The notes under the pieces were generated by a model that was not told the DNA's origin, did no database searches, and saw only the letters and a program-made list of their open reading frames with translations. From Eledone cirrhosa (lineage: Eukaryota): a DNA stretch of 64,000 nt. The stretch is taken from positions 11,656,001 through 11,720,000 of the forward strand of contig OZ024757.1 of the NCBI GenBank assembly GCA_964016885.1, in the 5' to 3' direction. Of this stretch, positions 2,284 to 63,652 are shown piece by piece (positions within the stretch are counted from its first letter, which is position 1; each line of letters begins with the position of its first letter). The translations under genes were made by a program, and so were the position numbers.

Positions 2284-2423
2284 CATTATTTCTGAAGACA
2301 GCATATATATGTGTAGGTATGTATATTCCCTCTGATAGTTTGTATAAATATTGTACATAGATCTATAGAATATGCATACCAACTCTAACACATATATATC
2401 CTAGAAACGATCGTAAAATGATG
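2284..2423 (+). ncRNA. Hammerhead ribozyme, family A (long stem II)
   Basis: Stem I CAUUAUUU/AAAUGAUG, CUGAAGA 2292-2298, ~105-nt stem II (AUAUAUAUGUGU/ACACAUAUAUAU; GGUAUGUAUAUUC/GAAUAUGCAUACC), GAAAC-GAUC-GUA with palindromic stem III. Confidence 0.75.
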
Positions 2424-4195
2424 AATTCTTTTAATATAAGGAACTGTTTCTTTGTTTATTCATTATTTTATTAATTTATCTTGACTCTGTTTTCCGTTTA
2501 TTTTTCACCGAAAGTAGTTTTTCAATGCATCTTCTCTTTTCATGATATCCGGATTACATTGAGTTCTTCATACGGATTGGACACTACCGTAAACCTTTGG
2601 TAGATTTATCTACATATATATACATATATATATATATACATACATATATATATACATATATATATATACATATATATATATTTACATATATATATATACA
2701 TATATATATACATATACATATATATACATATATATATATACATAAATATATATATACATATATATATACATATATATATAAACATATATATATATATACA
2801 TATATATATACATATACATATATATACATATATATATATACATATATATATATATACATATACATATATATACATATACATATATATAAACATATACATA
2901 TATATACATATATATATATATATACATATATATACATATACATATATATATACATATACATATATATACATATATATATATACATATATATATATATACA
3001 TATATATACATATATATATGTACATATATATATATACATATATATATACGGGTAACAAATAATAGTTAAATGCAGTCCACTTAGGTACAGTCCAGTTATG
3101 GTATTCCAGGTAGTGATTGATATCAACGCTTGGCTTGGTTTGACTCAACAAGGTGTTTTCATAGTGATGCTGCGGGTATGCTGTAATTCCTATGTTGTAA
3201 ACACTTGGAGTAATAATAAATCAGGAAAGAAGGTTGACATGGTTTGCTAGACCAAAAATGTTTTTAATCTCATAGCTGACAATTGTTTCTCTGAACTGGT
3301 AGGTCTAGAGATCGCTAATCGCTTATTTTCACGTTACTCGATCGCCAATACAAAATTATAACCAGTCAGTTCTTCGTAGCATGCGAGAATGAACAGAATA
3401 CACAGGCAAGAAAAGAATATACAGGCTACTATATGAAGTAGTAATGGCATTCAGTTAGAACAATAACAACAATAACAACAATGCTATTAATAAATTATTT
3501 GAGGAGACCCTGACATTACTTAGGTGGGGGGTATAGTGTATCTAAGATTTCGGCGTGTAACACTAGCTGTCATGAGGCAAAAGTAAAAGTTTGGCATGTA
3601 CAGAGTATCGAAGTGTGTATCAATTTTAAATTATAAAGATAAGCCAGTGTTTACAGTCTTTCTTTTCATCTTCAATAACATACATGAGTGGGACAACACT
3701 GTCAAAGCTAAATAGTTGTTCAGTTAATACAGAGGTTAAGGAGGTAATATACGCATATATTTATACACACACACACACACACACACACACACACACACAC
3801 ACACACACACACACACACACACACACACACACACACACACACACACACACATATATATATATATATATATATATATATACATGCATGTGTACATAGACAC
3901 ATACATACACATCAATATACACTCGTACAAAAATATACATACATGCAAAGAGATAAGCGTGCTAATTGTAATTATGGCAAAAGGAAGGTAAAGTTACATT
4001 GTAGTAGTGATTTGAGAAAAACTAGGATTTGGGATCAAATGATGGCAGCAGCTGAGAAGGAATAAGTTTGTGGGTTGATGAGGTACTTACAGACATGTGT
4101 GTGGTATAGAATTGTGAAGGCTAGAGTATACTTAATGAATATATTTCTGTGGGTAGTAGGTATCCTAATTTAAAGCTATGTTGTGTTGGTTCGAT

Positions 4196-61800: not shown

Positions 61801-63652
61801 ACCACTCAACAACCTCTCCAGTTCCCTTCCACAAGCTCAGGTTAGATACACAATCCAAGTTCTTAATTTGCTGTATCACCCTGTCAAGAATGTTTTTGCT
61901 TAATTTGCCCAGGTCCGATTTTGATGGTGCGATCAATCTAACTGGCAGGTCATTTTCAAAATTCCTCTTGTGATCCTTCATATTGATCTTCGGTTTCCTG
62001 GGCACGAAAGGTTGTGTTCTGTTCTCAATTTCCAACTCGTGCATTATACAAGATGCTTCGACATTCATTTTCTCAAGTTCGGCCTTATCTGCTACCTTGT
62101 ACTTTTTCCTCAGCTTTTATCTGACTTTGAAAACGATATAATTTCTATCATACAAGGGGTCAAATTCAAGAGAAACTTCAAAGGCCAGGAATATCTGAAA
62201 GGCATTAAGGATAACATTGAGAGCTTAGAGAAAACTGAGAAGATCTTGGTGAAATCTGACAAGACCAACAACCTCTATGGAGTGCAGAAAGACATGTATA
62301 ATGACCTCATACTGAAAGAGCTGAGGAAAAAGTACAAGGTAGCAGATAAGGTGTGATTTGATAGATAATTTTTGGCTTTGTTTTATAATGAACTTGGCAA
62401 TATATTGTCAATTAATTTTGAAGGGTTGATCTTTGTGGTTTATTTTTATTTTTTATTATTGTAGTATTTTTATAATATTTTTTATTTTTATTTTTAATAT
62501 CTTTAATATGTAAATTTTTTAATACGTAATATTTTTAATATGTAATATTTTTAATATGTAATATTCTTTCGTAATATTTTTTTTTTTAGTTTTCTATTTT
62601 ATTATTACTTATTATTATTATTGTTATCTTTTTATTTTTTTAGTTTTGTTTCTGATATATATTTTTGTTAGTATATTGAAATCTGCTCTCTATTTCTGCT
62701 TGATAGATAATCTTGTAGAGTAAAGACAGGAATACACATATATGTATACTCAAATTTTTATACCACATTGAGAATGTTTTCCGTGAACTTAGAGTTTGCA
62801 GAGTTGATCATGTGGATTCACATGGATGTTTGTAGCTATCACATAAACATATGAATTTTTTAAAAAACTAAACATAAGATAATTAATTTTCACACGCTAT
62901 GGATACTTATCTCATTCAGGAATACTGATATTTACAATATAGTAGAAGTTTTATAAATACTAATACATTAAAACATAGGGTTTTTACGCCTCGAATATAT
63001 CTGGCTATTTTTAAATTTTTTCTCTCGCTATTTTTTCTCTCTCTATATTTTTTCTCTCTCTATATATCTCCCTTACATTAATACTAGAGCTAAATAAATA
63101 AATAAATAAATAAATGTATTATTGATACATTTACTCAACTGACCTCCCACTACCTAATTTTCTATATATGTATGTATCTATCTCTATTTCCTCTCTCTCT
63201 ATATATATATCTCTTTCTGTTTCTTTACATGAAGTTCTTCTCTTTATCTATATTTCCATCTCTCTATTTTGTTCCATCCATTTCTTCTTTTTCTTCCTTT
63301 TCTTCGTTTTCTGTCTTTCTTTCTTTTTTTTCTCTCTTTTTTTTCTCTCTTTCATTCTGTGTAAAATTTTTTCACTGCCAGTTTAACCTCTTCAAATGCA
63401 AGTCGGTGTTATTACGGTATGTCGAATCTATTTGTCTATAAAACTGTTTATATTGTATTTTGTCTGAGGAAGGCATAGCATATTGTTAATATGATATCCC
63501 CGAAATATATATAATGAAATAAATATGGTTTTATAAATATAGTTTCCATTTATTTAATATTGTAAATATACTCCAAATATTTGTCGAGTGCTTTTATATC
63601 AGTTATAAATATTTACTAGTTGTAACCCAACAATTTTAAATATAACTTTCCA
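58803..63652 (-). mobile_element. Penelope-like element family C, copy 2 (longest PLE here; fold-back)
   Basis: Arms 58803-60031 / 62349-63564 plus extension; body 60314-62117; inverted N-terminal ORF chunk 62118-62351. Confidence 0.93.
60314..62117 (-). pseudogene. PLE reverse transcriptase + GIY-YIG endonuclease (in-frame stop near 61625; N-terminus inverted)
   Basis: RLIAPSKS, QLDIANYYSSI, MGSSDSAQ, LYRDD, FLDITLNL, SNHP, CNCR..CPL..C, IVYNC...YVGST, CDLC..E. Confidence 0.92.

Follow-up and report, generated by a model that had tools for sequence, protein, structure and literature searches.

Twin covarying hairpins in the 5′ leader of Penelope-like elements lie just after both element ends and likely set where reverse transcription starts

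Introduction

A 64,000 nt stretch of Eledone cirrhosa DNA (contig OZ024757.1, positions 11,656,001–11,720,000; the window) contains Penelope-like elements (PLEs) whose two ends both lie downstream of a predicted hammerhead ribozyme cut. This raises the question of what RNA is copied and what sets the place where copying starts. The origin of the PLE tail, inverted arms and pseudo-LTRs (pLTRs), as well as the role of the hammerhead, are stated as open (PMC8557442, PMC2377424, PMC11167929). Circles and dimers have been proposed for PLE hammerheads (PMC4209133; review PMC6765202), with cleavage as a dimer and ligation to circles that serve as template for more-than-unit cDNA (PMC4209133). In vitro, unprocessed RNA of the Poseidon element of Anolis carolinensis (PAc) shows two internal reverse transcriptase (RT) starts downstream of the hammerhead (PMC11167929). 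The idea of a circular or uncleaved tandem template, dimer cleavage and a tail formed by two starts are thus already published. Reported here are twin hairpins that mark both ends.

Results

Six PLE families are found in the window, A, B, C, D, H and R520 (a 520-bp repeat), all inserted in (TA)n. Each shows a short end (S) and a long end (L) downstream of the predicted cut. Distances from cut to S/L are 61–64/195–198 nt in family A (70–73/204 nt in A3, a copy with an insertion), 17–22/97 nt in B, 49–51/136 nt in C, 45–51/132 nt in D, 43–48/about 210 nt in H (16066–17203), and 56–61/177–179 nt in R520. These agree within about 5 nt with the preliminary description of this DNA.

The arms belong to PLEs with a C-terminal GIY-YIG endonuclease (EN). 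The open reading frame (ORF) of C2 matches profile positions 134–701, EN pieces are present in A, B, C and D, and full-length relatives are about 700 aa with 36–47% identity; Pfam names no domain among the PLE ORFs of the window. The elements have the features of EN+ PLEs: a single ORF with a PLE-type RT followed by GIY-YIG, direct or inverted pLTRs with a tail (one tailed end in each of the 12 head-to-head insertions) and, by descriptor scan, a predicted type I hammerhead in the pLTR. Family J is a different PLE type with a CxxC linker before the EN, which is absent from families A–D. PLE clades are named Penelope and Poseidon on the one hand, and Hydra, Neptune and Nematis on the other.

All 12 head-to-head insertions of the six families, read by eye, pair one S with one L end. 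Counted are A1–3, B1–3 (the duplicate B4 dropped), C1–2, D1–2, H and R520, where the L arm of B3, only about 15 nt, is tentative. The single-armed copies J1, J2, E, G, K4 and 4884–5075 are left out. The chance of this pairing is about 2e-4 if ends are independent and equally likely.

In A1 (127–2610) the minus arm has its S end at 127 and an EN ORF at 1527–2150, and the plus arm (2209–2610) has its L end at 2610. A2 (35092–38113) consists of a minus L arm with EN, an inverted RT piece (37010–37797) and an S arm, and A3 (41833–43385) has L at the left and S at the right. B1 (9314–11929) displays an L end at 9314, an S end at 11927 and an EN ORF at 9987–10706 (+). The mini-insertion B2 (29817–29930) has a 50 nt S arm and an L arm that ends within hairpin 1; B3/B4 (50946–51257), a tandem duplicate, have a 50 nt S arm and about 15 nt of L end. 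C1 (22779–26837) has S at the left and L at the right. C2 (58806–63653) shows an S arm with RT-EN (60341–62116, minus), an inverted ORF piece (62117–62350) and an L arm. D1 (30643–32183) carries an S arm of 23–35 nt, an inverted junction piece and a plus arm running from EN to L, and D2 (51281–53907) has L with EN at the left and S at the right. Family H (16060–17203) has S at the left, L at the right and a junction palindrome at 16592–16733. R520 (7600–8881), a non-coding hammerhead-to-hammerhead repeat, consists of an inverted L arm (7600–7857) and 1.96 direct units up to S (8881).

A jumped inverted piece is found at the junction in A2, B1, C2, D1 and H. The junction piece of A2 and C2 extends upstream of the other arm, so a second cDNA is needed. 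Simple snap-back of a single cDNA was considered and is ruled out as a general model, as the longer arm is the S-ended one in A1, B1, C1 and C2 and L arms contain sequence beyond S.

Fixed ends are supported by stops of DNA reads from the whole genome, mapped to the single stretch 31870–33215 (families D and J) with the AT repeat at L skipped. Of 53,022 molecules, 17,926 stop at 32375, which is 54 nt beyond the cut of family J; the short end of family D is visible at 32102. Over this stretch the RNA run X20 gave 11 small pieces and no evidence of expression, and the Hi-C run X21 gave 0 mapped reads.

The Rfam search of the window shows no hammerhead at the gathering threshold. A descriptor scan gives 14 core positions, where 50 block shuffles average 0.42; about three lie outside the named families (27146, 41183, 52456), and the scan missed families A, H and J, which were recognised by eye or other search. 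The type I hammerhead motif is thus present in the window pLTRs as predicted ribozymes. The family A hammerhead (2284–2425, +) has its core at 2293–2299, a long stem II and a predicted cut after 2415. Predicted cuts are also found after 8300 and 8820 (R520), at 9411 (−) and 11909 (+) in B1, 16104 (−) and 16992 (+) in H, 22829 (−) and 26698 (+) in C1, and 32051 in D1. Family H shows a U4C core variant. Family B shows the U3-A8 variant described in PMC4209133, and the small palindromic stem III of other families likewise resembles the minimal type I pLTR hammerheads of that paper.

Stem III is a 6–8 nt palindrome in A, C, D and R520, with folding energies of 0 to −0.5 kcal/mol as monomer and −5 to −13 kcal/mol as dimer, so it is predicted to be stable as a dimer only. 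For these four families folding bears out the earlier suggestion that a tiny palindromic stem III favours dimers. In family H the minus-strand copy is palindromic by eye, and the folded plus copy is mutated (0/0). The family B stem III has 5 bp and a monomer fold of −5.6; this hammerhead could fold as a monomer, which counts against a dimer-cut step.

The sequence that follows the hammerhead is the 5′ leader of the ORF, as the preliminary description had proposed, and it carries twin covarying hairpins placed just after S and L. The order is ORF, 3′ UTR, hammerhead, S, hairpin 1, L, hairpin 2, ATG. The hairpin consensus, RYTC-Y-stem-RTH-GARY, is present in two copies in the ORF 5′ leader of related loci. 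Among the relatives kept (best 80 of 478 confirmed stretches), 15 of 65 hammerhead-bearing ORF ends read through to an ATG, on contigs that are short-read assemblies and possibly repeat loops, hence not proof of true tandems or circles. All 15, which form 11 distinct families at 85%, have two motifs; from the cut, hairpin 1 is at +41 to +59, hairpin 2 at +103 to +123 and the ATG at +147 to +205.

The (TA)n ends of relatives fall in two groups, 16 at +29 to +57 with no motif and 12 at +95 to +118 with one motif; five further one-motif ends have flanks other than (TA)n. No end past hairpin 2 is found among the ORF ends tallied, a tally that leaves out 32 of 97 ORF ends lacking a hammerhead by pattern, nine contig ends, six unclear rows and two two-motif rows with no ORF call. 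In 17 relatives L-ended arms extend into the ORF.

A search of the window for the motif gave eight short matches against 1.15 in shuffles, all eight in PLE tails on the sense strand, and three additional long-loop matches in family A. The window tails carry versions of the hairpin with compensatory changes. Hairpin 1 of A1 (2484–2567, +) has a 69 nt inner part and begins 4 nt past the S position. Other copies of hairpin 1 are at 35137–35219 (−) in A2, 41879–41962 (−) in A3, 9359–9385 (−) in B1, 26755–26777 in C1, 63570–63592 in C2, 32102–32129 in D1, 51335–51362 (−) in D2 and 17045–17081 in H. In R520 it is at 8366–8392 (+), 4 nt past S, with an inverted copy at 7682–7708. Hairpin 2 is visible in the window only inside R520 (8484–8507, +, outer pair broken; second copy 7963–7986), four bases after the L position. 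A hairpin model not trained on the family K copy recovered this held-out copy (13092–13149, −) in the mini-insertion at 13060–13250, which has no assigned hammerhead and other copies of which are at 15906–16040, 30490–30562 and 50590–50665.

Across 32 instances, 96.6% of alignment cells are paired and 27 are double-change cells; none of 500 shuffles is as high, a control inflated by the kinship of the instances, and slid controls reach at most 52%. Two inner pairs are invariant, and rows L005 and L016 are out of register. Only one cell is G-U, so the folding strand may be RNA or cDNA. An Rfam covariance search to E 1 of 7 of 90 loci showed only two sub-threshold miRNA matches, away from the leader motifs, and the window gave no Rfam match for the hairpin at the gathering threshold. 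The literature searched contains no description of the twin hairpin, although further papers, supplements and figures may bear on its novelty.

The gap from end to motif is 3–4 nt in A1, A3, B2, H and R520 and 4–8 nt in the relatives L009, L055, L080, L085 and L088; the automatic measure failed within the (TA)n flank for A2, B1, B3, C1 and C2. Two observations count against the rule. The L066 end is 13 nt from hairpin 2, against the usual gap of about 3–8 nt. Family J has S and L ends but no hairpin motif: copy 1 (17316–18340, −) has an L-type end at 17316 and a cut at 17551, and copy 2 (32210–33226, −), tail-to-tail with D1 across (AT)13, has its S end at 32373–32375 from the reads and its cut at 32429. 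An upstream positioning signal is ruled out, as cut to S varies over 17–73 nt and hairpin 1 to L over about 27–120 nt, whereas an end and the next hairpin are about 3–8 nt apart. The earlier proposal of priming just after the ligation junction therefore falls: cut to S is variable and end to hairpin about 3–8 nt in most measurable cases, so priming tracks the hairpins, and these likely set where the RT starts copying. Another part of that interpretation, that a linear RNA ending at the cut cannot be the template, holds, since the ends lie beyond the cut.

A homodimer model of residues 1–480 of the relative P0002 gave an ipSAE of 0.39 (best of three controls 0.00), contact agreement of at least 48% and pLDDT of at least 71. 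Of solved homodimers, 21 of 30 reach the mark used, against 0 of 23 single chains; 17 of 29 do so in eukaryotes and one of seven where no solved relative exists. A sequence search for a solved relative of P0002 found none.

Discussion

We favor, with a probability of roughly one half, a reading in which a dimer docked on the hairpins primes two cDNAs on a template where the leader lies behind the ORF, most likely a re-ligated RNA circle made by the hammerhead. Each hairpin would bind one subunit of the predicted dimer. The start would be fixed 3–8 nt 5′ of the hairpin, aided by 2–4 nt of TA microhomology. The two cDNAs would be primed from the two nicked strands of the (TA)n target, and joining of their 3′ ends would produce the head-to-head shape. 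If each start needs a hairpin behind it, S would be the sole start available on a linear pLTR-ORF-pLTR transcript, and progeny that end at S would have no start at their own 3′ end. Hairpin 2 is never copied to the 3′ end, so the lineage would need a template path from the leader into the ORF 3′ end; the template would then be a circle, a true multimer or a strand-jumped RNA, and the sequence fits all three. The ligated junction is identical to the genomic pLTR-ORF junction, thus divergent RT-PCR alone cannot decide.

For the circle, a longer-than-unit transcript may be cut at both hammerheads as a dimer and then ligated; the lone hammerhead of the circle would remain uncut, and more than one round on it would regenerate the pLTR. 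Longer-than-unit insertions are R520 (1.96 units) and L009 (1.33 units), in which a 787-bp repeat extends into the EN coding region. L085, L010 and L077 are full-length copies whose 5′ side is bounded by (TA)n at S or L. The published circle proposal is based on tandem arrangement alone (PMC4209133); the loss of hairpin 2 is a separate, testable reason. Against the circle, mutating the hammerhead of the anole element left insertion normal in vitro, with unprocessed RNA as the main substrate, and no RNA-seq reads started or stopped at its cut (PMC11167929).

The same anole result (PMC11167929) supports the strongest alternative, which keeps the hairpin-directed twin priming but takes as template the uncleaved, linear RNA of a true multimer, with at least two units head to tail; the hammerhead would be dispensable, and multimers would be renewed by insertion beside older copies or by pLTR recombination in DNA. 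In D. virilis, partial tandems make up about 30% of copies (PMC2377424), R520 is itself tandem, and the 15 loci read from an ORF end to the next ATG. However, full multimers must be common enough to account for 17 L-ended against 16–22 S-ended ORF-bearing arms, the insertions of the window include no full unit, and conserved, covarying hammerheads would be left with no function. We regard this alternative as unlikely, though a serious competitor.

A linear RNA with a jump is less probable still. Here the RT would run from S or L to the RNA 5′ end (the cut or transcription start) and switch to a 3′ end, on that molecule or a different one, much as in retroviral strong-stop transfer, so that the path is circular with no covalent circle. 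Template jumps are frequent, as the five junction pieces show, and L055 has its 5′ end about 5 nt away from the upstream cut, a position that suits a cut linear RNA and speaks against a circle. But among the six named families no arm, read by eye, stops at the cut, and no indel, read-end pile-up or loose end is present at the D (32051) or J (32429) cut among the matches listed. Least probable, and improbable, is a motif that works in DNA, either on a cDNA intermediate, as a site for EN recognition or resolution, or as a promoter or translation element, with ends cut and not primed: the tail has been ascribed to EN-mediated resolution (PMC8557442), the D. virilis tail is needed for EN recognition (as recounted in PMC11167929), a 34-bp repeat has promoter-like scores (PMC2377424) and the 5′ boundaries of L085, L010 and L077 could be EN cuts, yet compensatory changes and inner lengths of about 8 to 69 nt speak against a duplex DNA site, and RT start sites in vitro are tail boundaries (PMC11167929).

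The preferred reading, a hairpin-docked dimer on a probable circle, resembles PAc in its two starts downstream of the hammerhead that define the tail, its AT-rich target and a predicted N-terminal helix dimer (PMC11167929). In PAc, the tail is bounded by the two start sites, cutting and extension occur on both strands of the target, and the reaction needs RNA lying 3′ of the start. PAc differs in that its starts lie within the ORF and those of the window elements in a non-coding leader; its tail is 30–40 nt against about 55–70 nt in relatives and 80–165 nt in the window; its start sites show no strand preference whereas S and L are strictly paired here; and the available text names an AC-rich stem-loop rather than a twin hairpin 3′ of each start (PMC11167929). 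With canonical EN+ PLE units the elements share head-to-head arms, a one-sided tail, (TA)n targets, junction palindromes and, as in L085, a solo ORF between direct tail repeats (PMC8557442, PMC3846280, PMC2377424). The available text of these papers gives no cis-element for the ends, and explains the tail by EN resolution or the palindromes by self-priming on antisense RNA.

R520 resembles the retrozymes, being a non-coding tandem with one type I hammerhead per unit (PMC7229834), units identical at 482 of 497 positions and no ORF of 120 aa or more; its unit is 520 nt against 170–400 nt (PMC7229834; bioRxiv 10.64898/2026.07.22.740005). Animal non-LTR retrozymes give rise to circular RNAs, and PLEs are the proposed means of their mobilisation (same sources). 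In its PLE-type S and L ends, its inverted arm and its two hairpins, R520 gives structural evidence of such mobilisation. The word "tail" is absent from the main text of the preprint (bioRxiv 10.64898/2026.07.22.740005).

More broadly, and only tentatively, a large invertebrate PLE clade may replicate obligately via a hammerhead-made RNA circle, with a dimeric telomerase-related RT-endonuclease docking on two tandem leader hairpins and priming both target strands from a single circular RNA, which would explain the tail, the inverted pLTR, pLTR regeneration and the mobilisation of retrozymes in which both hairpins are kept. A covarying cis-element that predicts both ends makes PLE end formation accessible to simple mutagenesis, and the twin hairpin offers a means of spotting retrozymes and other non-coding elements moved by PLEs. 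If replication does pass through such a circle, a portable hairpin that programs internal RT starts could serve RNA-templated DNA insertion, and an autonomous protein-coding retrotransposon would rely on a ribozyme-made circular mRNA.

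Insertions, hammerheads and element ends

The window DNA is rich in AT microsatellites, with LINE fragments and many (TA)n-bounded insertions. The insertions code for pieces of reverse transcriptase (RT) with a C-terminal GIY-YIG endonuclease, and share 36–47% aa identity with proteins of about 700 aa in public assemblies. On this sequence evidence the insertions are Penelope-like elements (PLEs). LINE-type RT fragments are found at 6369–7526/43508–45604, 14541–15869, 18341–20700/53954–56480 and 46436–50306; one LINE-type fragment (46873–48111) displays a PHD-like finger following its RT domain. 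An additional PLE endonuclease fragment without an assigned hammerhead lies at 4214–4672 (minus strand), its 3′ region extending left towards 3054.

A descriptor scan of the window shows 14 hammerhead-like core positions vs 0.42 in shuffles; an Rfam search of the window gave no hammerhead match. The preliminary description placed a short (S) and a long (L) insertion end downstream of the predicted hammerhead cut, and its distances agree with those re-measured: 61–64/195–198 nt (S/L) in family A, 17–22/97 in B, 49–51/136 in C, 45–51/132 in D, 43–48/about 210 in H and 56–61/177–179 in R520, a 520-bp non-coding tandem repeat. DNA reads show fixed ends genome-wide for D and a further family, J. 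At least one fifth of the 31-mers of a D/J stretch are common to runs of at least seven further organism labels, and near-identical D/J-type elements may be spread across species. In computed folding, stem III is stable solely as a dimer in A, C, D and R520, which fits the suggestion that cleavage may require dimerisation; in B it is predicted to fold as a monomer.

The family A 3′ UTR carries an internal duplicate (295–448 vs 525–682, 75% identical) containing the 5′ part of the hammerhead in decayed form. Additional hammerhead-like motifs without family assignment are present in elements 5122–6045, 13425–13881, 57480–57827, 27004–27423 and 40899–41477 (cores at 5196−, 13700+, 57532−, 27146− and 41060−/41183+); in the first three, a dinucleotide run lies 53, 135 and 29 nt past the cut, respectively.

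A twin hairpin in the leader

Ninety related loci (the best 80 of 478 confirmed, and 10 more) contain 97 ORF ends, 65 with a hammerhead by pattern. Fifteen of these 65 read through to an ATG 147–205 nt past the cut. Thus the post-hammerhead sequence is the ORF 5′ leader, a possibility raised in the preliminary description. All 15 leaders carry two copies of a hairpin motif, at +41 to +59 (hairpin 1) and +103 to +123 (hairpin 2). In the motif (RYTC-Y-stem-RTH-GARY, as a rule with ACT behind it), a 4-bp stem is combined with a bulge of three bases facing a pyrimidine and with an inner stem that varies in length. Of 14 leaders in another set, 11 have two strict copies; shuffles reach two in at most 1.3% of trials.

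The (TA)n-flanked ends of these relatives form two groups: 16 at +29 to +57 without a motif and 12 at +95 to +118 with one; five further one-motif ends have other flanks. No end beyond hairpin 2 is seen among the tallied ends of hammerhead-bearing ORF ends. Outside both groups are six unclear rows, nine contig ends and two two-motif rows without an ORF call. The tallied rows are mostly distinct families at 85% (16/16, 16/17, 11/15). Leaders of L001, L005 and L010, one family group, show a degenerate third hairpin copy directly after the hammerhead (about +14 to +35), and no end is seen before it in these leaders.

In the window the strict pattern gives eight short matches vs 1.15 in shuffles, all eight on the sense strand in tails (between S and L), namely those of B, C, D, H and R520; three further copies, with long loops, are in family A. 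Outer pairs change in a compensatory manner, G-C to A-U in A, B, C and D and C-G to U-A in R520. Over 32 instances, 96.6% of cells are paired and 27 are changed on both sides, with two pairs invariant and two rows misregistered; none of 500 shuffles, a control inflated by relatedness among the instances, is as high, and with slid controls pairing does not exceed 52%. The covariance model picked up a copy in family K, absent from its training. The motif starts 3–4 nt after the end in A1, A3, B2, H and R520 and 4–8 nt after it in five relatives; the gap is 13 nt in L066 and −1 in D2, and nine comparisons gave no informative value. R520, the sole window site with sequence past L, has a hairpin-2-like motif, its outer pair broken, 4 nt after L. 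Of 28 motifs, 20 have TAT or ATA in the preceding 14 nt, vs 44 of 101 other leader windows, which fits slight microhomology to the target.

Family J belongs to another PLE type, marked by a CxxC linker. It has both S and L ends yet lacks the motif, which is therefore clade-limited. Rfam holds no matching family for the 7 of 90 loci scanned, and no description of a twin hairpin was found in the literature searched.

Pairing of the ends

Twelve of 12 head-to-head insertions in six families have one S and one L end (alignments and sequence reading), as do three mini-insertions of family K. The arms of an insertion are 95–100% alike vs about 76–90% between most A and C copies, so both arms derive from one event. 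The shorter arm of five insertions (A2, B1, C2, D1, H) holds an inverted piece whose source lies no more than about 100 nt from the point where the other arm ends; in A2 and C2 it reaches 230–800 nt farther upstream. This is what one would expect were the same RNA taken over by a second RT. In several cases (B2, K2 and, in L017, the inverted arm) the L arm breaks off within or right at hairpin 1, as though that hairpin were bound.

In contrast to these insertions, an 80-nt near-perfect palindrome (50474–50553) consists of two family-B long ends facing tail to tail across (AT)n. Ends of different PLE families also meet tail to tail across one short (TA)n (32183/32210, 5075/5122; L027, L044, L086), which suggests repeated use of a microsatellite left by an earlier insertion. 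Family K survives as tiny end pairs only (13060–13250, 15906–16040, 30490–30562, 50590–50665); the core of its hammerhead-like region is non-standard, no clear stem I is seen, and the K1 long arm ends near the putative cut. Other small (TA)n-bounded repeats (22028–22117, 50797–50907, 51051–51152, 56795–56830; 45705–46052; 21479–21694/56501–56716) are probably ends of further elements.

Priming and template

The hairpins very probably direct the element ends. Each would bind one subunit of a protein dimer, fixing the start immediately 5′ of the hairpin; the two nicked target strands would prime S and L, and the two cDNAs would join head to head. A model of residues 1–480 of P0002, the protein of one relative, supports a homodimer (score 0.39, best control 0.00, agreement at least 48%, pLDDT at least 71), at a mark reached by 21 of 30 solved homodimers and 0 of 23 single chains but just 1 of 7 eukaryotic cases without a solved relative.

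Hairpin 2 is not kept at any 3′ end. Should every start require a hairpin behind it, a linear transcript with pseudo-LTRs flanking the ORF could start at its 3′ end at S only, and its S-ended progeny could not start there at all. L-ended arms continue into the ORF in A2, D1, D2 and 17 relatives, so under the same requirement the order on the template must be ORF, hammerhead, hairpin 1, hairpin 2. This order would result from a unit-length circle, made by dimer cleavage at both hammerheads followed by ligation, and more than one round on it would regenerate pseudo-LTRs. Longer-than-unit insertions occur (R520, 1.96 units; L009, 1.33 units). Full-length copies have a 5′ boundary at S (L085) or L (L010, L077); these fit a circle, and later insertions at TA-rich sites could also explain them. 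Counting against the circle are the position of the L055 5′ end, which is some 5 nt away from the cut, the possibility that the read-through contigs represent loops of the assembly, and the in vitro insertion of anole PLE hammerhead mutants described in PMC11167929. From sequence, hairpin-directed ends with a circular template have a probability of about one half. A true multimer transcript would present the four segments equally and is a possible but doubtful template; a 5′-to-3′ strand jump, which would do so too, is improbable, and a DNA-level role is very improbable.

Relation to published PLE work

According to the anole study (PMC11167929), RT starts in vitro at two internal sites downstream of the hammerhead that bound the tail, both target strands are cut and extended, and RNA 3′ of the start is required. 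Other papers propose dimer cleavage and circular templates (PMC4209133), describe an inverted truncated copy with a 30–40 bp tail at one end (PMC8557442), note junction palindromes (PMC3846280), and place a 34-bp tail at the ORF start with pseudo-LTR regeneration lacking an obvious mechanism (PMC2377424). Thus, although the ends past the cut are real, the circular or multimeric template that the preliminary description drew from them is largely in print already. The extracted anole template (PMC11167929 supplementary figure 1, letter order not guaranteed) shows by eye a GC-rich hairpin unit twice, of other sequence, with no RYTC/GARY pair seen in those letters; twin structures may be general among PLEs.

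The searchable literature yielded neither a twin leader hairpin predicting both ends, strict S-plus-L pairing, a retrozyme-like R520 with the same signals, nor the case for a circular template path built on hairpin loss. With these four, an open mechanism becomes directly testable.
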